DNA of 64,000 bases, from NCBI GenBank assembly GCA_963783445.1, contig CAWANP010000015.1, positions 216,666 through 280,665 on the forward strand, written 5' to 3'. Position 1 is the first letter of the stretch, and every line of letters begins with the position of its first letter. Under the pieces are notes generated by a model. It had not been told where the DNA came from, made no database searches, and saw only the letters and a list, made by a program, of their open reading frames with translations. The DNA is from an uncultured Chloroflexia bacterium. Lineage in GTDB: Bacteria > Chloroflexota > Anaerolineae > JAAYZQ01. The position numbers and the translations under genes are program-made. Positions 983 to 44,900 of this stretch are shown here, in pieces.

Positions 983-2440
983 TCAGGCCGCGGCTATCTC
1001 CTCCTCTGCCTGCCGTTTGAGCCGGCTCATCGCGGCCAGGACGTCGTCAGGGAGTGGCGCGACCTCATGGTTCTGGTCGATATCTTCCAGCTTTTCCCGG
1101 ATCCGCTGGTTGATGTCCTTGGCGCCGTCGGCCTGCCAGATAGAGTAGTCTTGCCGGGCCAACAGACTGGGTCGCCACAGTTCCTGCCGGAAACGGCGAT
1201 AGGTATGGTCTTCCTGCAAAAAGTGACCTCCCGGGCCGACCTTTTCCACGACATCCACAGCCAAGGTACCGGCATCGACCTCGATCCCCCGGCAGAAGCG
1301 CTTGGCCATGCCAATCGCTTCGTTACCCAGAACCAGCATCTCTGTAGAGCAGACCATGGCCGAGTCCATGTAGCCTACATCGTGGATCAGGTTCAGGCCA
1401 GCCAGACCCTGGGCCAAAATGGAGAAAGCGCTCTCCATGCCAGCCTGGGGATCCAGAACCTTGGAATCAGTCGCACCCGCCAGGCCCCAGGTGGGCAGGC
1501 CCATCGACCGGGCAACCTCCGCCTGCCCGGCAAGGGCCAGGCTCATTTCTGGCGCAGCTACCGTCAACTGAGTGGTAGACATGTCAAACACCGACATGTT
1601 GGCGCCCAAAACACAGGGAGCGCCAGGCCTGCGCAACTGGGCCAGAACCACGCCCATCAGCGACTCAGCCACAACCTGGGCGATGGCGCCGGCCAGGGTC
1701 ACTGGACCGGTGGCGCCAAATTGGACCGATGGTCCTGGGATCTGGGGCACAAATAGATCGGCCGAGATGAAGATCCGTTCAACGACCTCGTCAGGATACA
1801 CCAGAGGTGAGATGGGCTCCGGATAGGACAGCAGGAAGGGCCGCTCTCTGAGTTCATCCAGGCCGCCGGCGATTTCGGCCGCCATCTCATAGACCCGCTC
1901 CGAGCCGCGAGCGGAGTAGCCGATGAATACGATGGGCTTGGTGGTGTTGGTGACGACGGCCTCAAATTCGTAGACGTCAGCAGCAAGGGCAGGAACGTCC
2001 TGGGACGAACCCATGGGCATCACCCAGTCGATGTTGGGCAGTGCGTCGGCGACCTTGGCCCCAAAGGCAATGTCCGCCACCAGAGTCTCTCGGATCTCGC
2101 CGCTGAATGCGTCCCGGGTCCTGGGGCTGGCCGTCGAAGTGCCGTAGTAGCTTTTCCGCCCTTCAACTTCCATGGCCCGGTTGCCATCGCGGTCAAAGAT
2201 CACAAAGCCCTTGGGAGCCGTCCGGATGCACTCCTCAACGATGTGCTGTGGTACCTTTACCCTTTCCTCCTTGACCAGGGCACCGGCCTGCTTGAGTAGC
2301 CTTCTGGCTCCCTCGTGAAGGACAGTGCAACCGGTGTGTTCCAAGATATCCAGAGCGGCTCGTTTGATCGCCCAGACCTGTGCGTCGTCCAAGACACGAA
2401 AGGATACGGAACTCGATCGAGGAAACGAAGTTTGAATCAT
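983..2440 (-). CDS. MttB-superfamily methyltransferase (trimethylamine / glycine betaine:corrinoid methyltransferase family)
   Basis: The 507-aa ORF 983..2506 matches the MttB family along its length. The likely start is the internal Met (MIQTSFPRS..., ATG complement at 2438-2440). There is no in-frame TAG (pyrrolysine), so this is a non-Pyl MttB homolog. Confidence 0.75.
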   Translation of the reverse strand: MIQTSFPRSSSVSFRVLDDAQVWAIKRAALDILEHTGCTVLHEGARRLLKQAGALVKEERVKVPQHIVEECIRTAPKGFVIFDRDGNRAMEVEGRKSYYGTSTASPRTRDAFSGEIRETLVADIAFGAKVADALPNIDWVMPMGSSQDVPALAADVYEFEAVVTNTTKPIVFIGYSARGSERVYEMAAEIAGGLDELRERPFLLSYPEPISPLVYPDEVVERIFISADLFVPQIPGPSVQFGATGPVTLAGAIAQVVAESLMGVVLAQLRRPGAPCVLGANMSVFDMSTTQLTVAAPEMSLALAGQAEVARSMGLPTWGLAGATDSKVLDPQAGMESAFSILAQGLAGLNLIHDVGYMDSAMVCSTEMLVLGNEAIGMAKRFCRGIEVDAGTLAVDVVEKVGPGGHFLQEDHTYRRFRQELWRPSLLARQDYSIWQADGAKDINQRIREKLEDIDQNHEVAPLPDDVLAAMSRLKRQAEEEIAAA

Positions 2441-2612
2441 GACTGTCGACTCCTTGTGATGGGCTAAGGTTCGCCAATTATAACATAATTGGCAGCCATA
2501 GCACAATCAGCTGCACGTGGGTCGGTGGGGAAGGCTCACCTTTGGAGGTAGGGCCGGTTGAGTGCTCTGCGCGACCTGCGTAGGTGGCGGCGAGATAGAC
2601 TGAGCTGTGAGC

Positions 2613-5459: not shown

Positions 5460-6046
5460 GGTTGATGACCCCTTTCTGTATCCATGGTGCAACTTTGACT
5501 GGAGATCAACCCGTGGGGGGCGTTCTCCTATCCCATCCACTGCGAGAATCTATGCTCTGCAATCTCTTTTCAGAACCATCCCAAGCCGCACCTCCACATG
5601 GTCCTGCTCGTGACCATTATAGACCCAAACGAGCGACTTGTCAAGTTAAAGCAAGATAAAAATGATTATATTTATGGTGAGCGATAGGATCTTCTCCTGA
5701 ACTTGGGGCAGATGACCGATCGTGAGAGTGGCATGGCTCCCTCGCTGCCTACCATCTACTTGGTTGTGCTACTCGCGAGGTAGTTGGCCGATCACCTGGA
5801 ACGTGTTGAGGATCCTGTCAAGCGCTTCAAGGTCCGCTTCGCTAGCGATCTGAATCTGGAGCCAGATCAGGTATGATTGGTCCTCCGGTACGGCAGCCAG
5901 ATTGAGGAAATCACTGCCCTCCCCACCGCAATTGGCATAGTGATCGTACAGACCTGTGTGGGCAGCGTCTTGATACTCTTTGCGTCCTTCGTACTGGCAG
6001 TCGCCAGAGAAATCATACTCCTCCAGGTTCAGCAGTCCCTCTCCCG

Positions 6047-6928
6047 TCATTGCTTCCAGGAGTGTGCTGGAGGCTCCAAAAAACGCGCCTGGCTCTGCCC
6101 AGGGGTACAAAAGCCCTCCAAGCTGGCCGAGGCGACGATGGCGCTTCCAAGGACCTGACCTTCAATCTGCCAGGGCTTGGTGCTAACATTCCCCCAGGCG
6201 ACAAGAGTCTCCATCGTCAACGCGCCCGAGTCGTCCCTGACGAAGGCGTACTCCGAGTAGCTTGAGGTAACGCTGTCGCTGCCAGCGCTGGCGTCGCCGG
6301 TATCGACCTCCTGGGCAAAGGAGAACGCTTGCTCCAGGACCCGGCTGTTGAGCTGGCCCTCAAGAACCTCTTCGGTCGAGAAGCGGACGATCTTCAGGTC
6401 AAGCGTATCGCCCGGCTGGTGCGTGCGCAGGATGTCGCAGCAGTCGGATTTGGCAAAGTCGGTAGCCAGGACGAGTCCCTGCAGCTCGTTGATGATGTCG
6501 CCACCTTTCACGCCAGCCTGGTCGGCGGGAGATCCCGATTCTACCGAGGAGACCCAGATGCCGGACAGGCCCTCGCCATTGTTCACCGCCTCACTGTTTA
6601 CGCCGATTGAATCGACGTCCCGGCCTGCTCTCAACTGCTCGATGACCGGCAGCGCTTCAGCCCGAGCAATGGCAAAATGCTGTTCCGTCTCCGAGTTGCC
6701 CACACAGTGGATGGCTACTACCTTGCCATCCTCGGTGACCACGGGGCCGCCTGAGTTGCCGGGGTTGGTCAGGGCGCTGTGCTCGATGACCGAGTCCACC
6801 GAGGCCCACTTGCTCTCACCACTGGCTTTTTCTTTGGACACGATCCCCTGCAACAGTGTGTATTCTGGGTCGCCCAAGGGGAAGCCGGCGGCCTCTATCT
6901 GCACCGTAGCGCTTTTCACATCCTGCAA
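6047..6928 (-). CDS. Trypsin-like (S1C/HtrA-type) serine protease C-terminal barrel plus PDZ domain. The N-terminal His/Asp half is missing, so this is probably a disrupted gene.
   Basis: GNSGGP active-site Ser motif and a PDZ segment (GIWVSSVESGSPADQAGVKGGDII). The ORF begins with TTG. No His/Asp barrel is encoded upstream in any frame. Confidence 0.55.
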   Translation of the reverse strand: MQDVKSATVQIEAAGFPLGDPEYTLLQGIVSKEKASGESKWASVDSVIEHSALTNPGNSGGPVVTEDGKVVAIHCVGNSETEQHFAIARAEALPVIEQLRAGRDVDSIGVNSEAVNNGEGLSGIWVSSVESGSPADQAGVKGGDIINELQGLVLATDFAKSDCCDILRTHQPGDTLDLKIVRFSTEEVLEGQLNSRVLEQAFSFAQEVDTGDASAGSDSVTSSYSEYAFVRDDSGALTMETLVAWGNVSTKPWQIEGQVLGSAIVASASLEGFCTPGQSQARFLEPPAHSWKQ

Positions 6929-6941
6929 GCTGGATACGGCC

Positions 6942-7439
6942 TTACCCGTGGTGGTCTGTTGAGACTGCGTCGGCCTCGGCTGGCACTGGGGTTGGCGCCT
7001 CGAGGGCGCCGCCAGGCCCGACTACCTCAAACCCGTAGGTTCCAGCGGGAGTCCCATTGACGTACAGCCTCGCCTCATACTCGTTGCCCACAGGGAATGG
7101 GTCGTCGGGGGTCAAAGTGAAACCAACGAGGGTGTTGCCGCCAACCATGAAAATGAGCCCTTCCTCTTGCCACAATTCTGCCAGATCAAGGCTGACCTCG
7201 GTTATCTCCTGGTTCCCATAGATAAAGCGTACACCCACCACGCCCTCTCTGGGATTGCCATCGAGGGTGGCCGAAAGATGGACTGTCTCCTCGGGCAGAA
7301 ATTCGCTGCCTGGATCGATGGGCTCCATCTGTTCGCCCAGACTGCGGGCATAGGTGGCATCCAGGATCTCGGGAGGCCCTTCTGGTTCGTCAGAGCCGCC
7401 ACCACAGGCCGCGACCATCAGGGCCAGAACCACGGGCAT
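6942..7439 (-). CDS. Lipoprotein of unknown function, possibly the N-terminal part of the disrupted protease gene
   Basis: Lipobox-like N-terminus MPVVLALMVAACGGGS. It ends 14 nt before the protease fragment, in another frame. Confidence 0.4.
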   Translation of the reverse strand: MPVVLALMVAACGGGSDEPEGPPEILDATYARSLGEQMEPIDPGSEFLPEETVHLSATLDGNPREGVVGVRFIYGNQEITEVSLDLAELWQEEGLIFMVGGNTLVGFTLTPDDPFPVGNEYEARLYVNGTPAGTYGFEVVGPGGALEAPTPVPAEADAVSTDHHG

Positions 7440-7454
7440 TACCGCCCCGTTTCC

Positions 7455-7898
7455 TCAATTGTCCCCTGCTTCTAGCGGGTAGCCGGCCGCATTCCAGGCT
7501 GCCAGCCCGCCCTCTAGCGCGTAGACTTGGGCCGGATCCGTTCCCTCTTTGATCACTGTCAGCGCCGCACGGGCGCTGGTCTCTTCAGCCGGTCAAGTTC
7601 AGTAGAAAACCAGTGATTTGTCGGCCGGAAGCTCAGCGGAGCGCGCGGCTGCCTCGCCAGCGGGGAAAGAGATGGCTCCAGCTGCGTGGGCCTGCTGGTA
7701 TGCGGCCTCAGAACGGGCGTCGTAGATCAGTGCATCGCCGCTATCCTGCAGTGCCTTGGCGTCTGCCGCAGTGATGCGCTGGATATCGTCAGCACTCTCC
7801 ACCACAACCTGCGGCTCGGTTGCGGGTGCAGAGCTGCCGCAAGCGGCCAATGCGAGGACTAGGCCAGTCAGGACCATCGATACAAACCATCTGTTCAT
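7455..7898 (-). CDS. Rhodanese-like sulfurtransferase lipoprotein with two in-frame TGA codons at the catalytic loop. It is a candidate selenoprotein (UxU); a pseudogene is the alternative.
   Basis: Lipoprotein signal MNRWFVSMVLTGLVLALAACGSS, then a rhodanese fold (...DALIYDARSEAAYQQAHAAGAISFP...KSLVFY). TGA occurs at the complement of 7599-7601 and 7593-7595. The same frame continues PAEETSARAALTVIKEGTDPAQVYALEGGLAAWNAAGYPLEAGDN to a stop at 7455-7457. Confidence 0.5.
7560..7578 (-). ncRNA. Candidate SECIS-like hairpin (CAGCGCC-CGUGC-GGCGCUG) 17 nt downstream of the second in-frame UGA of the rhodanese gene
   Basis: Perfect 7-bp GC stem with a 5-nt loop containing G and U. Its position is in the range typical for bacterial SECIS elements, but it is unverified. 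Confidence 0.3.
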
Positions 7899-7996
7899 TT
7901 GCAGCTCCTTCTTTAGACTGGAGGGGACCCGATCTACTCTGAGGTCTCCCGATCTAGAATCTTCTTCTTCGGCGCATATGCGGGCGGGCAGCCCTT

Positions 7997-8488
7997 TCAT
8001 AGAGCGCTGCGCGCAGCAGTATGGCTACCCCCTGCATTCGTCTCAGCGCCCGCCTGCACCCCCTCCAGGCCAAGCTCCCGCGCCTGATCGCAGAGGTCGG
8101 CAAGGGTGATGGAATCCAAGAACTCTGCCATTGTCGCCGATAGCTGCATCCACAGGTGATGCGTTACGCAACACTCTAGTCTGTGGCAGGGGTCCTCTTG
8201 TACGGGCAGGACGCAATCCACGACGGCAATGGGACCCTCCGCGGCGCGTACTATTTCGCCAATGCGGATCAATCCAGGATCTCGGGCGAGGATATAGCCA
8301 CCGCGCGGTCCTTTGACACCTAGTACCAGCCCGGCGTTGCGAAGTTGCTGGAACAAATGGGCCACATAGTCGGACGAGATCTCCTGCCGAATTGCCAGCT
8401 CATGGCGCGGAACAGGTTCCGCAGAGGCGTGCAGCGCCAGGTCAAGCATCGCTCGCAAGGCGTAGCGCCCGCGCGTTGAGACCTTCAT
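7997..8488 (-). CDS. Rrf2-family transcriptional regulator (IscR/NsrR-like, Cys-containing)
   Basis: MKVSTRGRYALRAMLDLA wHTH N-terminus plus a Cys cluster CVLPVQEDPCHRLECC. Confidence 0.8.
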   Translation of the reverse strand: MKVSTRGRYALRAMLDLALHASAEPVPRHELAIRQEISSDYVAHLFQQLRNAGLVLGVKGPRGGYILARDPGLIRIGEIVRAAEGPIAVVDCVLPVQEDPCHRLECCVTHHLWMQLSATMAEFLDSITLADLCDQARELGLEGVQAGAETNAGGSHTAARSAL

Positions 8489-8524
8489 CATGCGACTCAC
8501 TCCCCCTTTTCCCTATTATACAAT

Positions 8525-8545
8525 AGTTGAGGATTTGTGTCAACT
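8525..8545. promoter_or_regulatory. Inverted repeat AGTTGA-N9-TCAACT immediately upstream of the Rrf2 gene; possible autoregulatory operator
   Basis: Perfect 6-bp arms read directly from the sequence. It lies between the Rrf2 start and the YibE/F gene end. Confidence 0.3.
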
Positions 8546-16139: not shown

Positions 16140-17570
16140 CTACTCCCAGCCCTTGGTGAATCCACGGTCGCCGGGCACGATGCCCAACTCCTCACGCAAT
16201 TGCAGGCATTCCCGTTCAAACTCACTCACCCGCTCGCGCAATTCGGCAATCTCGCTCGGGACTTTCTTGCCGGCATCACCCAGCAGATTCTGAATCTCGG
16301 TAGGATCGCTTCGAAGATCGTAGGCCTCGTCTCCATAGTCGGGGTCGCGCACATAGGAGTGGTCCACCGTGCGGGCACCCTGCAAGAGGCTAGGGTGTCG
16401 GCCAGCGGCTGGCATGCCCGTGGGGTAAGTGGTCCCCAGGTGGCCGTGGTAGTCGCCCACCTGGGCAAAGAGGCAGTCGCGCAGCGGTTCCTGTGCCCCC
16501 TCCTGCACCCAGCGGATCAAGTCATGCCCTTGGGCATAGTCCGGGACCGGGATACCGGCGATGCCCAGGATCGTCGGGAAAAGATCGATGGCATTGACCA
16601 GGCCTGGGACTGTTTCGCCGCGCAGGGGTAGCGCTCCGGATCCTGCGGGCGGTACAATGATCAGCGGTACGTGCAGCAGGCACTCGTAGAGCGATTCGGT
16701 TTTGGCAAACATCCCCTTTTCGCCCGCATAGTCGCCGTGATCAGAGCCGATAATGATCCAGGTATTCTCCAGCAGATCATGTTCGCACAGCGCTTCGAAG
16801 ATGCGTCGCATCTGATCGTTGGCGTTGGCAATCATGCCATAGTAGATGGCGATGAGTTGCCGCATGTCGTCCTCGCTGGCGAGATCGGTCCTGCCTTCCT
16901 GATGAACGGTGAGCTGCCAGTCCGGCTGCTCGCCCTCTGCCGGTAGTACTGGCAATTCGACGTCAGCCGGGTCTACCAGGGTGTCGTAGGGCGGCGGTAC
17001 GAAATAGGGCGGGTGCGGGTCGTCAATGGCCACGTGGAGGAAAAAGGGATCGTCCGGTCTGCAGGGCCGCGTCCAGCATTTGGATGGCGCGGGTGGCGAT
17101 CAGGGCGGAATTGCCCTCCTCAGCCGTGCTGTCGATGGCGCCAGATGACCAGGCATAGTCCTGGCGGCCAGACGCGTACTTGGCCCGCATGGAGCGGTAC
17201 AGCGGCCCAGGTTGCATGAAGGAGATCTGCTCGTGCCAGCCACGGGTCAAGTTCCGCTGCTGCTCATAGTGCCCGATCACGGCCGTATAGTAGCCGGCGC
17301 CTGCAGCAGCTCGGAAAGCTGGGGCAGGTTGTAAGGCGCGCGGTTCTGGTGGCATGTTACCTGGTGGACCAGGGGGTGGACCCCGGTGAGGACCGAGGTC
17401 CGAGATGGGGTGCAGATAGAGCTGGCAGAGTAGGCATGGGCAAAGGCCACGCCCTGGCTCGCCATTTCTTCCTGGAAAGGACTGGGTACCACGGGGTTGC
17501 CATGGATGCTACAGGCCGACGCTTTCTGTTGGTCCGCCATGAGATATACGATGTTTGGACGGCGCTCCAT
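16140..17570 (-). pseudogene. Sulfatase (arylsulfatase family) split into three ORFs by two frameshifts
   Basis: The N-terminal fragment carries the formylglycine motif SICTPSRTSVLTG. The middle (17023..17355) and C-terminal (16140..17033) fragments continue the sulfatase fold in other frames. Frame breaks fall near 17030 (the ggaaaaaggg run) and ~17300. Confidence 0.7.
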
Positions 17571-17991: not shown

Positions 17992-20804
17992 GTGAACACG
18001 CTGCTCGTAACGACCAAGCTTCACATTCCTCTACCCCGCCCGGAGCGGGTCTACCGTCCCCGCCTCTTGCGGCGGCTGGAGGACGGCTTGAGCCAGGGCC
18101 ACCGGCTGGCCCTGGTCTCTGCCCCGGCTGGCTATGGTAAAACGACGCTGCTCGCTGAATGGGTGCGGCGCGGCGATCGACCAGTGGCCTGGGTTTCACT
18201 GGACGCCGGTGACAACGACTCCGTCCGCTTTTGGTCGCACGTCGCTGCCTCCCTGCAAAAGATCCACGCAGGGGCCGGCGAACCAGCGCTGGCGGCCCTG
18301 CAATCTCCCCAGCCACTTCGCGTCGAGGCTGCTTTGACAGCCTTGATCAATGAGGCCGATGCTATCCCAGAGCCCTTTACCCTCGTCCTCGATGACTATC
18401 ACCTGGTTGACGCAGGGGAGGTGCATGGTGCTCTCAGTTTCCTGCTCGAGCACCAGCCGCTCAACATGCATCTTGTGATCTCTACGCGTTCCGACCCTCC
18501 CTTGCCCATCTTCCGCCTGCGGGCCCGCAGTCAGTTGACCGAACTGCGCAATGAGGATCTTCGCTTCTCGCCTGACGAGGCGCTTGCCTTCCTGAATACG
18601 GTGATGAGCCTGGACCTGACCCGGGAGGATGTTGCCTCACTGGAGGCTCGTACCGAAGGTTGGATCGTTGGTCTACAGCTCGCTGCGCTTTCCTTGCAGG
18701 GCCGTGCGGATACGCAGTCCTTCATTGCTGCCTTCACGGGCAGCCATCACTATGTGTTGGAATACCTTACCGAGGAGGTCGTGCGGCGCCAGCCAGCGCC
18801 GATCCGGCAGTTTCTGATGCAGACGTCGATCCTGGATTGTCTGAGTGGACCGCTATGTGATGCGGTCCTGGACGGGGGTGTGGGACGAAAGATGAGGAAG
18901 CCCAGAGATCCAACCTCGACGATTTGTCCGTCGTGCTTGGGCCTTCGCCGGCGGGCGAGGAGATTCTGGCTTACCTTCAACAGCAAAACCTGTTCGTCGT
19001 TCCCCTGGATGACGAGCGCTGCTGGTACCGCTACCATCATCTGTTCGCTGACTTGTTGGCCAACCTCTTGCGCAAAGAGTGGCCCGTAGAGCATAGCCGC
19101 AAGTTGCACAGGCGCGCCAGCAAATGGTACGAGGAGCATGGCATCCCGGACGATGCCATCAAGCATGCCATACAAGCCCAGGCTTTCGAACGGGCAGCAT
19201 CGCTGATCGAGCAGTCCGCCCAGGCCGCCCTGGCGCAGGGCAGAGTCATGATGCTGCTTGGCTGGCTGGGGCCATTGCCAAATGCGGTGCTGCGCTCCAG
19301 ACCGCGCCTCTGTCTTTACCAGGCATGGGCGCTGCATCTGAGCGGGCAGTCCCGCGCAGCCAACGAGATCCTGCGGAGCGCGAGACGAGTGTTGCAGTCC
19401 CTACCGCCATCCCACGAGGATGAAGGGCTGCGTGGCCAGCTGGCTGCCCTGCTCACCAGCATTGCCATGCTTCACGAAGAACCATCTCAGATTATTGCAG
19501 AAGCCAGGGAAGCTCTGACTTTCCTCCCTGAGGAGGACTCTGTCTCGCGCGCCAGGGTGCACGTGGCGTTGGGCACAGCCCATGCCTACGAGGACGAACC
19601 AGAACAGGCTGCAGAGGCGTGGCGACGGGCCAGTAAGCTGGCACTCGAGGCCGCCAATCCCTTCTTGGCTACAGCCGCTATCGAGCTCCTGGCCGGCATG
19701 CAGATCTACCATCAAGGCCGCCTGCGGGAGGGTGCCCGGACCCTCCAGCAGGTGTTGGATCTGGGGACCACACCGGCTGGTTTGCTTCTTCCCTTCACTG
19801 CGACGGCACATGCTTTGCTGGCAGAAATCTACCTGGAATGGAACGACCTGGATGCCGCTGGCATCTATCTGGAGAGGGGGATTGAGCTGCTGCAGCGGGG
19901 GGGTATCGCCTATGGTATGACCCATACCTACTGCGCCAAAGCGCGTCTCGCGCGAGCGCTGGGCGACCGGCAGGGGCCATAGAAGCGCTTCAGGCGGCAA
20001 GGCGGGCTACCGCGAGCACACCCCATGTGGCACATGATCCTCCACCAGGCATCCTGCCAGACGCGGTTGAGCCTGTGGCTAGGTGATGTGACCGGGGCAG
20101 AGCGGTGGGCCAGCGCCGACCCGGCAACCGTCGAATGTGACCTGCCTGACAAGCTTCCGTGTTATTTGCGTGAAGTTCAACAGATCTCGCTGGCGCGGGT
20201 GTGTCTCGCCAAGGGTGAGGTAGACGATGCCCTGGAGATGCTAGATACGCTGCTTCTGGGAGCTGTGTCAGCAGGCAGGGCGGCGCACGTCGTTGAAGTC
20301 AGCCTGGTGAGGGCCCTCGCGCTGCGAGCACAAGGCAAGATCTGCGCAGCTATGAAATCGCTCGAGACTTCGCTATCAATGGCTGAACCGGAGGGGTATG
20401 TACGGACATATCTGGAAGAGGGCGAACCCTCGCGCCTACTAGTCTCAGAATTTCGGTCTCTGAGCCTGGCACAATCCCGAAAAACTCCGGTTCAGGTATC
20501 TCGTCCCCTGCTGAGATACGCTGATAGACTGTTGGCTGCATTCTCGCACACCGAGACGGAGATAGCTTTGCCACTCACCGAGACGCCGACAGCTAGAATC
20601 CAGAACCTAGTTGAGCCCTTGACAGGACGGGAACGGGAGGTACTGCAACTTATCGGCAAAGGGTACACGAACCAGGAAATTGCCGCGGCACTGGTCGTTA
20701 CCGTGAATACGGTGAAAAAGCATGCAAGCGGGATCTATGGCAAACTGGGCGTGCGCAGCCGTACCCAGGCGGTGGCACGTGCCCGCGATTGTGGGCTACT
20801 ATAG
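17992..20804 (+). pseudogene. MalT/LuxR-type large ATP-dependent transcriptional regulator (AAA ATPase, TPR-like region, LuxR HTH) with at least three frameshifts
   Basis: Walker A SAPAGYGKTTLL; central LFVVPLDDERCWYRYHHLFADLL; C-terminal LuxR HTH EREVLQLIGKGYTNQEIAAAL..VNTVKKHASGIYGKLGV. The ORFs 17992..19089, 18924..19982 and 20025..20804 are in different frames. Confidence 0.75.
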
Positions 20805-38401: not shown

Positions 38402-39579
38402 GTGAGCTTTCCGCAGACTGCAGATGTAGTCGTCATCGGCGGCGGGATCATTGGGACAAGCATCGCCTTTCACCTGGCATGCATGGGCGTGGGCAAGGTC
38501 GTGGTGCTGGAGCGAGAAGTATCTGGCGGCCGGCGCTACCGGCCTGAGCTGCGGGCTGGTACGGCAACACGCAGACAATCCGTTGGACGCCCAGATGGTT
38601 TCCAAGAGCATGGAGACGTACCGGTACTTTGACAGTCTCGTGGGTGGGGACTGCGGTTGGGTGAGCACGGGCTTTCTCTATTTGACCTCTCCAAGAAACC
38701 TTGAGCCGATGAAGGCCAATATCGCCATGCTGCAGGACATGGGGATCCGTACCCGGCTGGTTGATTCCGGCTGAGATCCGCGAGCTGGCCCCCTACCTGA
38801 GTGTTGACGAGCCCATGTACGCCGCCTACGAGCCGGATTCAGGCTACGCCGATCCCTACTCGGCGACGATGGGCTTTGCTGAGGGGGCGCGCCGCCATGG
38901 AGCCCAGATCTTCCAGGGTGTAGAAGCAACGGGCATCGTCACCGGCAACGGTCGCGTGACAGGCGTGCAGACGCCCCAAGGTGAAATCTCTGCTCCTGTC
39001 GTCATTGATGCGGCCGGACCGTGGGGCGGGTTGGTGGCGGCCATGGGCGGCGTGCCCACCGATCTGGAGATCGAGCACCATCAGGTCGGTACGCTCGAGG
39101 TCCCGCCGGAGGTAACCTGGCCGCACCTGACGGTGATAGACACGTTACGCTACACCTACTTTCGGCCCGAAACCGGCCGGATGACGCTGGTTGGCGCCTC
39201 GTTCGCCAACCGCATCATCGGCGCCGAACAACTGGAAAGCTACAGCCAGAACCTGACACCGGATACGGAGTATGAGTTGCTGGAGCGGTTCTGTGCCCGC
39301 TTCCCTGGCATGGAGGTGGCAGGGGTACGCAAGGGCCACGCTGGCGTCTATATCAATACGCAGGATCTGCATGGATTGTTGGGGCCAGCGCCCGGCGTGG
39401 AGGGCTTTTATCTGGCCACGGGTCTCAGCGGCCAAGGCTTCAAGATGGCGCCTGTGGTTGGCCAGGCCATGGCCGAGCTGATCCTGAACGGCCGCGCGGA
39501 CGTAGTGGACATAAGACCCCTGCGTGTGACCCGCTTTGAGGAAAGCGAACCGATCAGGGGGCTGCATCCCTACGGGTAG
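38402..39579 (+). CDS. FAD-dependent oxidoreductase (DAO family, sarcosine/glycine oxidase-like), with about two frameshifts
   Basis: GTG start with an AGGAGG RBS; dinucleotide motif VVVIGGGIIGTSIAFHLA; the fold continues across the ORFs 38291..38632, 38451..38774 and 38761..39579. Confidence 0.7.
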
Positions 39580-39599
39580 CTCCAACAGACACTCATGGA

Positions 39600-40793
39600 T
39601 TGAGAATGACAGGCAGACATTATGATGTGCTGATCGTTGGTGGTGGGATTATGGGCTGTTCCATCGCCTACCATCTCGTGGCGCAAGATGACCGGCTCAG
39701 AATTGTCGTCGTCGAGATGGATCCATCCTACTCCTACGCGTCAACCACCCTGTCCGTGGCCAATGTAAGGGTTCAGTTTGCCATCAAGGAGAATGTCCAA
39801 ATCTCTCTGTATGCGCTGGATTTTCTTCAGCGGTTTGGCGACGAGATGGCTGTGGGTGACCAGAATCCGGATGTGGGATTCCGCCACCAGGGCAACCTCT
39901 TCCTGGTAGATAAGGCAGAGCGCGCGCAGGCTGAGCAGAGACTGGCGCTGCAGAGGAGCTTGGGTTGCCAAGTTGAGTGGCTGTCACCAGACGAGATCAC
40001 GCAGCGCTACCCCCTCTACGATGCCGAAAAGTACGCTGGGGGTACCTTTGGGTGCCGGGATGGCACGATAGATGCCCATGCGGTTCTCATGGCCTATCGG
40101 GCCAAGGCTAGATCTCTGGGCGCCGAGTTCCTTCACGACGAGGTGGTGGAGATTCTGCGCGACGGAAGCAGGGTCACAGGAGTCCGGCTGGCCTCAGGGG
40201 GCGCGCTGGTGGCCAGGTCTGTGGTAAACTGTAGTGGGGCCTGGGCGGCCCAGGTCGCCCAGACGGCAGGCGTGAGAATTCCGGTCAAGCCGCAAAAGTG
40301 CCAGGTCTTTGTGTTGGACACTCGGGTCAAGCCGGACCACAGCCTGCCGCTGACGATCCTCCCATCGGGCCTCTGCATTCTTGATGAGACCGGAGGCCTG
40401 ATTCTTTGCGTGCGGTCCATCGAAGCATCAGACCAGATCGATTTCACGTTGGAGAGAAGGAGGTTCACCGATGGGCTATGGGAAGAGCTGGTCGCATTCG
40501 TTCCAGCCTTTGACCGCCTCAGGCTCATCAGCGGTTGGGTAGGGCTCTTTGCCATGAGCACCCTGGACAGCAACGCGTTTTTGGGCGAGTGGCCCGAGTT
40601 GCAGGGGTTCTACCTGGCCAACGGCTTCTCGGGGCACGGATTCCAACAGAGTCATGCAGTGGGACGCTACCTGGCTGAGCAGATCACGGGCTGCACACCG
40701 ACGCTGGATCTATCGATCTTTGCTCCACGGCGCATTCTGGAGAATCGGCCGATCCACGAGGCGATGGCGGGCGGCTCGTCGGGACACGATTGA
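39600..40793 (+). CDS. FAD-dependent oxidoreductase (DAO family), intact
   Basis: VLIVGGGIMGCSIAYHL Rossmann motif; 397 aa. Confidence 0.8.
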   Translation: MRMTGRHYDVLIVGGGIMGCSIAYHLVAQDDRLRIVVVEMDPSYSYASTTLSVANVRVQFAIKENVQISLYALDFLQRFGDEMAVGDQNPDVGFRHQGNLFLVDKAERAQAEQRLALQRSLGCQVEWLSPDEITQRYPLYDAEKYAGGTFGCRDGTIDAHAVLMAYRAKARSLGAEFLHDEVVEILRDGSRVTGVRLASGGALVARSVVNCSGAWAAQVAQTAGVRIPVKPQKCQVFVLDTRVKPDHSLPLTILPSGLCILDETGGLILCVRSIEASDQIDFTLERRRFTDGLWEELVAFVPAFDRLRLISGWVGLFAMSTLDSNAFLGEWPELQGFYLANGFSGHGFQQSHAVGRYLAEQITGCTPTLDLSIFAPRRILENRPIHEAMAGGSSGHD

Positions 40794-42016: not shown

Positions 42017-42805
42017 TTATTTGCCCAACACCATGCCCGTGGGGTCGATCTCCTGGAGTAGCGTGCGCTCCTCAAGAGTTGGCGGCTCTGACTCTGGCAC
42101 CTGGCCCTTGACCAGGATCTCAAACTGGCTGTTGGCCTGGACGTCGCTCAGGCTTACGCCCGGGTGCAGGGCGAGCAGCTCAAGTCTCTTGCTCTCCTCC
42201 TCAAAACCATAAACTCCCAGTTGGGTGATGACCCGGTAGGGCCCGCAGTCCGCTGGCAAGCCAGCCCGCTCCCGGCTGCCGGGCCCATCCAGATAGCCCG
42301 GCGTCGTCAGAAAGTCCAGATCGTTGACAAAGGTCCGCGTGCTCTGATTGCGCATGACGTAAATGGTCCGCCAGCAGAAGGAGCCCAGATCGTTCGCCCC
42401 TCCGGAACCTGGCAATCGCACCTTGGGCCGGTCCCAATCGCCGATGACGGTGGTATTGATGTTGCCATAGGCGTCCATGGCCGCGGCGCCCAGAAAGCCA
42501 TAATCAATAAAGCCTGCCTGCGCAGCCGACATGATGTCGTGCATCGTCGTGGCCACCAATGCCCTGTGAAAGGTGCGCGAATCCCCTACCGAAACAGGCA
42601 GCGATGGCAATTGGGGACCCATACCGCCTGCCTCAAAGACCATCATGATGTTGGGCGCATGGAGGCGTTGGGCAAGCATGGTGGCGGTCATGGGCAACCC
42701 TGTGCCGACAAAGACGGCCCGATTATCCTCCAGCATTCGGGCGGCCACACAGCACAGCAGTTCTGCAAGGGTATAGCCTCCACCTGACCCGTTGTTTCGT
42801 ACCAT
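42017..42805 (-). CDS. CoA-transferase family I, subunit B
   Basis: 262 aa matching 3-oxoacid/glutaconate CoA-transferase beta subunits (ESGxG-type region MMVFEAGG). Confidence 0.8.
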   Translation of the reverse strand: MVRNNGSGGGYTLAELLCCVAARMLEDNRAVFVGTGLPMTATMLAQRLHAPNIMMVFEAGGMGPQLPSLPVSVGDSRTFHRALVATTMHDIMSAAQAGFIDYGFLGAAAMDAYGNINTTVIGDWDRPKVRLPGSGGANDLGSFCWRTIYVMRNQSTRTFVNDLDFLTTPGYLDGPGSRERAGLPADCGPYRVITQLGVYGFEEESKRLELLALHPGVSLSDVQANSQFEILVKGQVPESEPPTLEERTLLQEIDPTGMVLGK

Positions 42806-42821
42806 TGTCTGTTTCCTCCCC

Positions 42822-43829
42822 CTACAGTTTTCCCTTGCCGCCTTTTTCGATGGCTGCCAGTTCCTCCAGCCGCTTCATACCGCCCACAAGATCCAGATAG
42901 CCCCCAAAGTCGGCCACGCCGTGCACGTACCTGTCCATGTACTCCTGGGCGCCCTCCGGGGTCTTGCTCAGGCTCAACCATTCGCCGATGTGCGCTTCGT
43001 CAAAGAAATAGCGGTAGGGCATCTGGCCTGGATGGCCGCCAAAGGGTACCTCGCACACGGCGTCTACCACGTAAAAGGGTACCACGGTTCGGTCTGGCTG
43101 GCGCCGGATCTCTTCCTCGTCAATGATCTCCTCGGCGGTGATGACGACGCGCCGCCCGGCCCGGGCCAGCTCCACATCTTCCATGGGGATACCGTCGATC
43201 TGGGCGTTGCCGAATCGGTCGCATCGCGGGACGTGCAAAAGGGCCACGTCAGGGTAAGCGGCCGGGATCAGAGTCACTGGTTTCTCGCTCCAGGGATCCT
43301 GGATCACGATGGCCGAGCTTTTCTCAAAGGTGTCGGTGCCGGCCAGACTGCGGACAGGGATGAAGGGGATGCCCATCATCCCTGCCAGGAAGCGCCACTG
43401 ATAGGTACCGTTGGACAGTTCCCCGATCACGCGTACGGTGCCGTTTTCTACCGCGCGCCGGCCCGAGGGCGAGAGCCCGCGCAACTCGTGTCCAAAGGCG
43501 TAGGCGCACTCAACTCTGCTGACGCAGCCGGCTCCGATCAGCACGTCAATGTCGTGTACCCCCGTCTTGCCCGCCACGGCCAGGTCCCGGCGGCCCTGGC
43601 GGATGATCTCATAGATCACGGCCATGGGAACGCGAACGTGGCCAAAGCCGCCGATGGCCACAAAGTCGCCATCGTGAACAAAGCGCTCGACGGCCTCGCG
43701 TACTGTCATCCGCTTGTCGACAAGCCCCCTGGGCTTGTGGTCGCGTACCCAGGCCCGGTGCTCATCGGGGTCGTGCCATCCTATCAGTTCCCCCTGGCCT
43801 TGCTTCAGGATCCTGATGTTGTCTGTCAT
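42822..43829 (-). CDS. CoA-transferase family I, subunit A
   Basis: 336 aa from the MTDNIRIL start; alpha-subunit fold. Confidence 0.8.
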   Translation of the reverse strand: MTDNIRILKQGQGELIGWHDPDEHRAWVRDHKPRGLVDKRMTVREAVERFVHDGDFVAIGGFGHVRVPMAVIYEIIRQGRRDLAVAGKTGVHDIDVLIGAGCVSRVECAYAFGHELRGLSPSGRRAVENGTVRVIGELSNGTYQWRFLAGMMGIPFIPVRSLAGTDTFEKSSAIVIQDPWSEKPVTLIPAAYPDVALLHVPRCDRFGNAQIDGIPMEDVELARAGRRVVITAEEIIDEEEIRRQPDRTVVPFYVVDAVCEVPFGGHPGQMPYRYFFDEAHIGEWLSLSKTPEGAQEYMDRYVHGVADFGGYLDLVGGMKRLEELAAIEKGGKGKL

Positions 43830-43919
43830 GGATGTGCCTCTTTCTCCCTCTTGCTCAAAGTAAGTGACTCTCTTCTCCCTGGCGAACCTTGCGGTGAGAC
43901 CCTGGTACAACCGCTGCGA

Positions 43920-44900
43920 TCAGTACTGGCTGGGCGACGGTGACAGATCCAGCATCTCGCGGGCCTGTGCTGCTGTAGCGATCTCCCTGTTCAGATCTTG
44001 TGCAATGCGCACCACCCGCTCTACAGCCTCGACGTTGCTTTCCAGGAGCCGGCCTCGTTTGTAGTATACATTGTCCTCCATACCCACACGTACCATCTGC
44101 GCCCCCAAGATCATGGCCAGGCTGGTCATGGGCAGTTGGAAGGGACCAACGCCTGATACCTCGACGACACACTGGGATGGCAGTTGTTCAAAAAAGTTGA
44201 TGAGGTTGCCTGGCGTTGCCCAGGGCGACATGCCGTAGCCCATGACAAACTGGATCAGATAGGGTGGCTCAACCAGCCCTTGCTCCATCAAGTCAAATAC
44301 GCTCCACAGTTGCCCAGGGTGGTAGACCTCCATCTCGGGCTTGATGTTTCGTTCTCGCATGGCTTGGGCAAATCGCTGCAGTTCCTTGTGGGTGATGGGT
44401 AGGGTTCCGCTCACCTCCTGGGCGGGTCGCGGGTGAGGCAGGGGTGCCTTTCGCTCCTTGAGCCTGAGTTTGTACATATCCGGCCCCATATTCAGTGTGG
44501 CAACCTCTGGCGCTGCATCCAGGCAGGCCACCCGGTCCTCGACGGACATGCCGAAGGAACCGCCGGTGCTATTGTTGATGATGATCTCGGGGCAGGCTTC
44601 GCGGATCAGGGCATGGACCTTGCGGTACTGCGCCACGTCGCCCGAACCGTCCCACCACTTTTCGGGGTCGCGCACGTGCAGATGCACCATTGAGGCGCCA
44701 GCTTGGTAGCAGGCGAGGGTCTGCTCCACCTGCTCCTCCGGTGTTTCGGGCAGGTTGGGGTTTGCTTCCTTGCCCTGCACGCCGCCGGTGATGGCGACAG
44801 TGATGGCCAGGGGGGGAAAGCTGGACTTTCGCACTCGCTCGAGCCATTCGTAGGGGTTGTGATAGTCCCAGACATGATTCTGCATCGTTGCATGCTCCAA
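43920..44900 (-). CDS. BKACE-family (3-keto-5-aminohexanoate cleavage enzyme-like, DUF849) beta-keto acid cleavage enzyme
   Basis: TIM-barrel BKACE signatures ITVAITGG, HLHVRD and EVSGVGPFQ. Confidence 0.8.
   Translation of the reverse strand: MEHATMQNHVWDYHNPYEWLERVRKSSFPPLAITVAITGGVQGKEANPNLPETPEEQVEQTLACYQAGASMVHLHVRDPEKWWDGSGDVAQYRKVHALIREACPEIIINNSTGGSFGMSVEDRVACLDAAPEVATLNMGPDMYKLRLKERKAPLPHPRPAQEVSGTLPITHKELQRFAQAMRERNIKPEMEVYHPGQLWSVFDLMEQGLVEPPYLIQFVMGYGMSPWATPGNLINFFEQLPSQCVVEVSGVGPFQLPMTSLAMILGAQMVRVGMEDNVYYKRGRLLESNVEAVERVVRIAQDLNREIATAAQAREMLDLSPSPSQY

Follow-up and report, generated by a model that had tools for sequence, protein, structure and literature searches.

A candidate exported rhodanese of Chloroflexota with UGA codons at both conserved active-site cysteine positions

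A stretch of 64,000 nucleotides (nt) from an uncultured Chloroflexia bacterium (GCA_963783445.1, contig CAWANP010000015.1, positions 216,666-280,665; the whole stretch is called the window below and positions are counted within it) carries on its minus strand, at 7898-7455, a rhodanese gene whose reading frame contains two internal TGA codons. A preliminary description of this DNA, made from the sequence alone, had proposed that these codons might specify selenocysteine (Sec). We regard the gene as a candidate for a small, exported, membrane-anchored rhodanese in which both active-site cysteines are replaced by UGA-encoded Sec, and put the probability of this reading at about 0.88. Of the comparisons proposed there, all those carried out favour this reading. 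The evidence comes from the anatomy of the gene, the conservation of its UGA codons, the cysteines at the same positions in homologues, purifying selection downstream, covariation in a hairpin, export signals and the protein fold.

Results

Anatomy of the gene

The gene comprises the following elements.

7455-7898, minus strand: predicted selenoprotein gene, 147 residues plus stop, with lipoprotein signal and rhodanese domain, Sec predicted at residues 100 and 102; the same layout is found in orthologues
7905-7910, minus strand: Shine-Dalgarno sequence AAGGAG, as read from the sequence, 6 nt upstream of the ATG
7898-7896, minus strand: start codon ATG, supported by homologues beginning with MN(R/K)W
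7839-7898, minus strand: signal peptide predicted from the sequence, with lipobox L-A-A-C (residues 17-20, Cys20)
7485-7772, minus strand: rhodanese domain (PF00581), residues 43-138
7599-7601, minus strand: first in-frame UGA (UGA1), residue 100 (position 1), predicted Sec; Cys (TGC/TGT) in 31 of 51 distinct relatives
7593-7595, minus strand: second in-frame UGA (UGA2), residue 102 (position 2); TGA throughout the Chloroflexota clade and Cys across the wider CxC family
7560-7578, minus strand: hairpin CAGCGCC-CGUGC-GGCGCUG of the bacterial selenocysteine insertion sequence (bSECIS) type; 7-bp stem of 7578-7572 with 7566-7560 and 5-nt loop CGUGC at 7571-7567
7455-7457, minus strand: stop codon, also TGA, a genuine terminator with no hairpin downstream

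The two in-frame TGAs reported in the preliminary description are indeed present, at 7601-7599 and 7595-7593, in an otherwise complete rhodanese open reading frame (ORF). Read in frame on the minus strand, the active-site stretch is ADKSLVFY-TGA-ACT-TGA-PAEETSARAALTVIKEGTDPAQVYALEGGLAAWNAAGYPLEAGDN-TGA; the second TGA is followed by 45 codons up to the true stop, not by 49 as first counted. With both TGAs substituted by Cys, the protein matches the Pfam family Rhodanese (PF00581) with 49.6 bits against a gathering cut-off of 22.2 (E=5.7e-13). Gene callers cut it at 99 residues.

The N-terminal lipoprotein signal reads MNRWFVSMVLTGLVLALAAC in the translated minus-strand ORF. Throughout the family the N-terminus is a lipoprotein signal (…LLAGCG…) or else a basic tail with a single transmembrane (TM) helix, from which we predict an extracytoplasmic location of the rhodanese domain. 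For the window protein itself, export and lipid anchoring are predicted.

Conservation of the two UGA codons

Both TGAs are reproduced in a separate read-based assembly: a contig that Logan built from run ERR11523668 agrees letter for letter with window positions 8467-7559, the two codons included. The same TGA-ACT-TGA is present in a syntenic orthologue with 80% protein identity, found in the metagenome-assembled genome 'uncultured Chloroflexia bacterium MFD09964.bin.2.208'.

We translated in frame 65 loci taken from genomes and metagenomes. Nearly all relatives from Chloroflexota (Anaerolineae, Chloroflexia) read Y-TGA-T-TGA-P…, YCT-TGA-P… or YCT-TGA-GQE…, and continue downstream of the TGAs with about 45 conserved codons (…ALxGGLAAWxxAGYP…) before a true stop. 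At position 2, TGA is found without exception in the Chloroflexota clade. Position 1 is variable: among 51 distinct sequences it is TGA in 20 (U-x-U forms, U denoting Sec) and TGC or TGT in 31 (C-x-U forms). Even close relatives differ there, as do L033.1 (TGA) and L037.1 (TGT) at 86% identity, L035 and L031 at 77%, and L041.2 and L033.2 at 82%; repeated Cys/Sec exchange must therefore have taken place at this position. Two nonsense mutations hitting these codons by chance had been judged very unlikely from the window alone, and the recurrence of the arrangement in about 50 distinct homologues from independent assemblies bears this out.

The frame downstream of the TGAs is under purifying selection. 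Between the window and its relative L024, 5, 2 and 12 sites differ in this part at codon positions 1, 2 and 3, respectively. Differences thus concentrate at third positions, which shows that the downstream frame is translated.

In a collection of 5.8 billion proteins, 17 of 20 homologues are gene calls ending exactly at …FY (position 1) or at …FYCT (position 2). Calls ending at a UGA include P0001-P0017, P0090, P0099, P0107, P0123, P0151, P0152, P0162, P0164, P0166 and P0169; they lack the active site and the C-terminal third, and several bear names such as 'hypothetical protein' and '3-mercaptopyruvate sulfurtransferase SseA'.

Paralogues come after the lipoprotein rhodanese gene at some loci of Anaerolineae (L026 2000-3300, L033 2000-3300, L041 2000-2700, L005 2000-2700). 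One paralogue is TM-anchored and has two rhodanese domains, each reading FYCT-TGA-PAE and each with its own hairpin, so that two Sec residues are predicted. A paralogue in L041 reads FY-TGA-D-TGA-PAE.

Cysteine homologues

An exhaustive HMMER search with a full-length homologue carrying Cys at both positions (P0018) retrieved 4,426 cluster representatives with E-values up to 1e-3, of which 686 reached 1e-10 or lower. About 110 of the best 150 representatives read [LVF]-Y-C-x-C-P-[NSG]-E. Another 11 of these 150 end at …LYC(T/S) and are therefore taken as further Sec forms, and about ten keep the first Cys only. Proteins of this last kind include P0028, P0037, P0086, P0108, P0120, P0127 and P0130 (e.g. 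VLYCSRPNEATSA and VFYCAEPKEATSA). Position 1 is an invariant Cys in the Cys family. Homologues thus carry Cys at both TGA columns (about 110 of the 150 top representatives; Cys/Cys homologues include L010 and P0018), and, as judged from these alignments, both columns are conserved Cys positions of a large membrane-associated family.

In many of the Cys/Cys forms (e.g. P0022, P0024, P0082) the rhodanese domain stands at the C-terminus of a DedA/VTT membrane protein. A single fusion of a Cys/Cys rhodanese to an AhpC/TSA (peroxiredoxin-like) domain was seen, in P0039. One further DedA/VTT and rhodanese fusion, P0166, ends at LYCT and is therefore read as a Sec form of the DedA fusion.

A hairpin conserved beyond the encoded peptide

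The perfect 7-bp GC hairpin that had been noticed 3' of the second UGA is present at 7578-7560. Its stem begins 14 nt after UGA2 rather than 17 nt as first stated, and the distance to its apical loop is 21 nt for UGA2 and 27 nt for UGA1. The published bSECIS model has a stem of 4-16 bp, a loop of 3-9 nt with G within the first two positions followed by G or U, a UGA-to-loop distance of 16-37 nt and a minimum free energy (MFE) of at most -7.5 kcal/mol (PMC13188914 Fig. 2). The window hairpin agrees with this model and both UGA spacings lie inside the 16-37 nt range; the proposed bacterial SECIS distance therefore holds, and covariation supports the element besides. Its MFE is -13.6 kcal/mol; when the same peptide was recoded synonymously, the value was -5.5±2.5, and only 1 of 300 recodings was as stable.

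For comparative analysis, 44 distinct sequences were aligned without gaps over a segment that starts four codons ahead of position 1 and extends 17 codons past position 2. In this alignment the UGA2 columns (19-21) are invariant in 44/44 sequences. RNAalifold predicts a single hairpin pairing columns 38-42 with 48-52, which extends to 7 bp (columns 36-42 with 48-54) in the subclade of the window, and the core of the hairpin is present in all 44 sequences. Column 39 always pairs with column 51, as C-G (23 sequences), U-A (20) or U-G (one); column 39 is a third codon position for Ser (AGC/AGU) and column 51 one for Ala (GCG/GCA), so that the exchanges at both are synonymous. A further exchange is seen at 36-54, with G-C in 17 sequences and C-G in three. 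Before the loop stands an Ala codon, GCC in 42/44 sequences, whose third base ends the 5' arm and never varies; the paired third base in the G(C/U)G codon that follows the loop is likewise constant. Both pairing and covariation were well under the observed values in slid-register and shuffle controls. The loop consensus is C-G-(U/G)-G-(U/C), with GGUGC in three paralogues.

Comparison of close relatives leads to the same picture. Window and orthologue are 100% identical in nucleotide sequence precisely from UGA2 to the end of the hairpin, and identity at third codon positions is 0.95 over codons 100-119 and 0.60 upstream. In L010, the only Cys/Cys homologue with DNA examined, the same S-A-R-A peptide is encoded and the hairpin is degraded. 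Evidently, RNA structure is under selection here, beyond the peptide it encodes.

Weak hairpins lie about 20 nt after the TGA in L011, L050, L056 and other loci of the G-Q-E subclade (C-T-U relatives). A longer or different structure may exist in these loci.

Active site and fold

As a stand-in for the window protein, an AlphaFold model was made of the Cys/Cys homologue P0018. It shows the canonical rhodanese fold with a predicted local distance difference test (pLDDT) value of 91 and superposes on solved rhodanese domains with a root mean square deviation of 1.6-2.3 Å. In the model, the central beta-strand ends at residue 96 and the first Cys (C97) follows directly, while the second (C99) stands just before a helix starting at P100.

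The preliminary description had placed the two TGAs on the two cysteines of the catalytic loop. Both columns are indeed Cys in homologues, but only one of them can be the canonical catalytic Cys, the other being two residues away. HMMER alignment to solved rhodaneses puts the second Cys on the catalytic Cys of 1yt8 and 6mxv, and the first on that of 3tp9, with a two-residue gap. The strand end in the P0018 model and the relatives keeping one Cys favour the first position as catalytic; Sec is obligatory at the second. Because the alignments split, single-Cys relatives keep the first position and Sec is obligatory at the second, we read the motif as a two-residue chalcogen centre spanning the canonical catalytic position.

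The residues following the motif are acidic (P-A-E-E-T), in contrast to the basic loops of thiosulfate sulfurtransferases. A redox-active pair, forming a Sec-x-Sec diselenide or a Cys-x-Sec selenenylsulfide, would be the most plausible chemistry. The AhpC/TSA fusion of the Cys/Cys relative P0039 speaks for a redox context.

Selenocysteine machinery and genetic code

Sec machinery was searched for in the window and in the fetched loci. Rfam and ARAGORN detected no curated RNA family and no tRNA-Sec in the window, ARAGORN found nothing in 52 related loci, and Pfam scans of 33 window ORFs revealed no selenium-related gene. With SelA, SelB and SelD of E. coli as queries, tblastn against the window and all loci gave one AIRS-family match only. 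This gene, located beside the Cys/Cys rhodanese of L010, was considered as SelD and rejected, since its sequence (GEFGLI…GIGDDAAVW…TTDTMVEGIHF) reads as thiamine-monophosphate kinase ThiL. When further in-frame TGAs with coding-like sequence on either side were looked for, noise at 61% GC dominated the outcome. Selenoproteins have been recorded in Chloroflexi (PMC1794560).

Scattered TGAs of a recoded genetic code had been named as a finding that would speak against Sec. TGA is the commonest stop in the window (38 of 66 putative genes) and terminates 25 of 55 family genes, that of the window among them. As TGA is an ordinary stop in both window and family, recoding is excluded.

Relation to known rhodaneses

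A 'rhodanese-related sulfurtransferase' was listed among selenoprotein families in the Sargasso Sea study (PMC1088965), and the statement in the preliminary description that rhodanese-related sulfurtransferases are a minor selenoprotein family agrees with published lists. The CxU form is known as COG0607 form 2 or 'form 3' and as NF041203 (example TKB26178.1), and is traced to Zhang & Gladyshev 2005 (PMC9312934, PMC13188914). A U-x-U rhodanese-related sulfurtransferase was described in deltaproteobacterial symbionts of Olavius algarvensis, where a second Sec evolved beside the known one (Zhang & Gladyshev 2007, PMC1976440, Fig. 3A). The U-x-U arrangement, which had been called unusual, is thus present in the window but not new, having been published in 2007 (PMC1976440). 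Compared by motif alone, the symbiont protein and that of the window are identical in U-x-U and differ in phylum (Deltaproteobacteria and Chloroflexota). The CxU rhodanese selenoprotein and its UxU variant having been described in 2005-2007, the window protein represents no new category.

NF041203 (rhodanese_LYCAU) is the top NCBIfam match for the window protein (77.9 bits) and for 10/10 relatives tested (67-94 bits). Its curated cut-off of 115 bits is reached neither by these eleven proteins nor by the Cys/Cys forms, and database relatives ending at UGA stop at model position 84. The curated family and the window protein both have one rhodanese domain, with Sec placed two residues beyond the conserved Cys column next to the L-Y strand end: in the same register, the model reads L-Y-C-A-U, the Chloroflexota relatives L-Y-C-T-U and the window F-Y-U-T-U. 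The window protein differs by predicted Sec at the first position too and by its lipoprotein signal. Since its scores remain under 115 bits, the Chloroflexota clade falls outside the curated NF041203 equivalog, and it is thus a sister group of that family within the broad CxC/CxU rhodanese superfamily.

The C-x-C-P-(N/S)-E rhodaneses have the same active-site architecture (Cys at both columns, Pro and Glu) and the same fold, and are likewise membrane-associated. They differ in having Cys instead of Sec, in the lack of a SECIS hairpin in L010, the one such homologue examined as DNA, and in being, in many cases, domain fusions rather than small lipoproteins. GlpE and PspE share the rhodanese fold, and the GlpE structure 1gmx matches the P0018 model. 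PspE is extracytoplasmic, as is predicted for the window protein. The GlpE model (NF001195) gives the window protein 33.7 bits against a cut-off of 102, which is not an equivalog-level match, and PspE was not reported among its NCBIfam matches. The window protein is set apart from both by an acidic instead of basic active-site region (PAEET) and by the second chalcogen residue. A known rhodanese fusion with two Sec residues (a 572-position model) resembles it in combining a rhodanese domain with two Sec, but has another Sec spacing and a fusion architecture; the window protein scores 28 bits against its cut-off of 805.

Genomic context

Three neighbouring features accompany the gene.

7997-8500, minus strand: Rrf2-family regulator gene (PF02082, E=2.3e-39), upstream of the selenoprotein gene
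8515-8543, minus strand: sigma-70 consensus TTGACA-17-TATAAT, 12/12, directly upstream of the Rrf2 gene (a consensus match only)
5772-7439, minus strand: HtrA-like trypsin/PDZ lipoprotein gene, downstream, syntenic with the orthologous locus and split over three frames

The Rrf2 gene is probably co-transcribed with the selenoprotein gene, and the site at 8543-8515 is likely to be the promoter of this putative operon; no other promoter-like site was found between it and the rhodanese gene. The Rrf2 neighbour had been considered consistent with a redox role. It does adjoin the gene, but the adjacency is kept in the nearest relatives only (L004, L024, L006) and not across the family. In the orthologous locus L003 (8887-9945), nadA is inserted between the Rrf2 and rhodanese genes, where the window has a 98-nt spacer (7899-7996) without nadA. 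In the G-Q-E subclade, the rhodanese gene adjoins rpoD, and clustering of neighbouring ORFs, which across loci was dominated by antisense ORFs, showed a membrane-protein gene as another conserved neighbour. These neighbours reflect synteny and give no functional clue.

The HtrA-like gene begins 16 nt after the rhodanese stop and lacks about 75 residues relative to its 656-aa orthologue in L003; it is either a pseudogene or an assembly indel artefact. Three other genes appear broken into two or three adjacent or overlapping ORFs: a sulfatase (16140-17355, minus strand), a MalT/LuxR-type regulator with AAA_16, TPR_MalT and GerE domains (17992-20804, plus strand) and a DAO oxidoreductase (38451-39579, plus strand). 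Two sister-species assemblies (L002, L003) disagree on which genes are split, which suggests long-read indel errors.

An MttB-family methyltransferase (983-2506, minus strand) is 507 aa long, uninterrupted and without in-frame TAG. Two DAO oxidoreductases, a BKACE enzyme and CoA-transferase subunits are also present in the window (38451-40793, plus strand; 42017-44900, minus strand). Together this set may represent a quaternary-amine catabolism neighbourhood.

Discussion

In the mechanism we propose, an ancestral Cys-x-Cys-Pro-x-Glu motif would have become Sec-Thr-Sec-Pro-Ala-Glu in a lipid-anchored, extracytoplasmic, single-domain rhodanese. Both UGAs would be decoded as Sec by SelB·GTP·Sec-tRNASec, SelB being recruited by one SECIS hairpin inside the coding sequence. 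As for chemistry, substrate and regulation, we infer that residues 100 and 102 would form a redox pair, a diselenide in the window protein and a selenenylsulfide in its C-T-U relatives. On the rhodanese scaffold this pair might serve as a chalcogen relay, or it might work as a cell-surface thiol/selenol oxidoreductase, rather than as a classical thiosulfate sulfurtransferase, and transcription would probably start from the promoter upstream of the adjacent Rrf2 gene.

Simpler explanations have to be considered. Several window genes look frameshift-broken (HtrA-like, sulfatase, MalT-like regulator, DAO), so the assembly contains errors or decayed genes, and the rhodanese gene might itself be a pseudogene or its TGAs sequencing or assembly errors. 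Those other defects are indels, whereas the TGAs are substitutions; moreover, both TGAs occur in the ERR11523668 assembly and in the 80%-identical orthologue, and the same codons stand in about 50 distinct sequences from unrelated metagenomes, followed by an intact and selected frame. We attach practically no weight to this explanation. Reassignment of TGA to Trp or Gly in the lineage (codes 4, 25), which would place W or G where we predict Sec, is conceivable for an uncultured lineage in whose available DNA no Sec machinery was seen. Yet TGA is the most frequent terminator (38/66 window genes) and ends the window gene itself as well as 25/55 family genes, homologues carry Cys and not Trp or Gly at both columns, and in-frame TGAs are limited to these two columns with a conserved hairpin alongside. 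The chance that reassignment is the cause is negligible.

More thought is due to the possibility that only UGA2 is decoded through the SECIS, UGA1 being passed by near-cognate read-through (Cys/Trp) or mostly terminating translation; U-x-U genes would then be low-expression or attenuated variants and not true diselenide proteins. Position 2 is invariably TGA and position 1 facultative, the hairpin is 6 nt more distant from UGA1 than from UGA2, and we found no experimental proof in the literature of double insertion by one bacterial SECIS. Work on E. coli points to a critical spacing between UGA and SECIS. The 27 nt for UGA1 nevertheless fall within the 16-37 nt that the published bSECIS model allows, position 1 is an invariant Cys in the Cys family, and multi-Sec proteins with UxxU, UxxxxU and UxU motifs have been catalogued. 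Furthermore, several separate subclades and paralogues (20 distinct sequences) acquired or kept TGA at position 1, which argues that it is tolerated and selected. We therefore rate decoding of UGA2 alone as improbable.

Several points weigh against Sec at both positions and against the function proposed. The 64 kb of the window and the fetched loci showed neither selA, selB nor selD, and no tRNA-Sec. Some relatives in the G-Q-E subclade have a local hairpin of 4-5 bp and -5 kcal/mol, weaker than the -7.5 threshold. Alignments disagree on the position of the canonical catalytic Cys, and Sec insertion at both codons, like the service of one SECIS to two UGAs 6 nt apart, is deduced from sequence. 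Finally, no conserved functional partner gene was found among the neighbours across loci, and any function we name is therefore a guess.

A more far-reaching version of the proposal can be put forward only tentatively and is, in our estimate, rather unlikely to hold in full. According to it, exported rhodaneses across Chloroflexota would use a single intragenic SECIS for two UGAs 6 nt apart and form an extracytoplasmic diselenide centre; Cys/Sec toggling at position 1 would perhaps track selenium supply or redox potential, and the function would be distinct from sulfur transfer.

What is new concerns the extent and the evolution of these proteins. A widespread Chloroflexota clade of exported or anchored forms extends the known selenoproteome of the phylum. 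Its genes are systematically truncated in databases and escape the curated model, so that the active site and the C-terminal third are missing from public protein sets for this clade (17/20 matches). Position 1 has toggled repeatedly between Cys and Sec beside an obligatory Sec, and synonymous sites covary clearly in a SECIS positioned for both UGAs. If the proposal is true, the clade would be a natural system for studying the tolerance of SECIS spacing and for comparing diselenide with selenenylsulfide chemistry.

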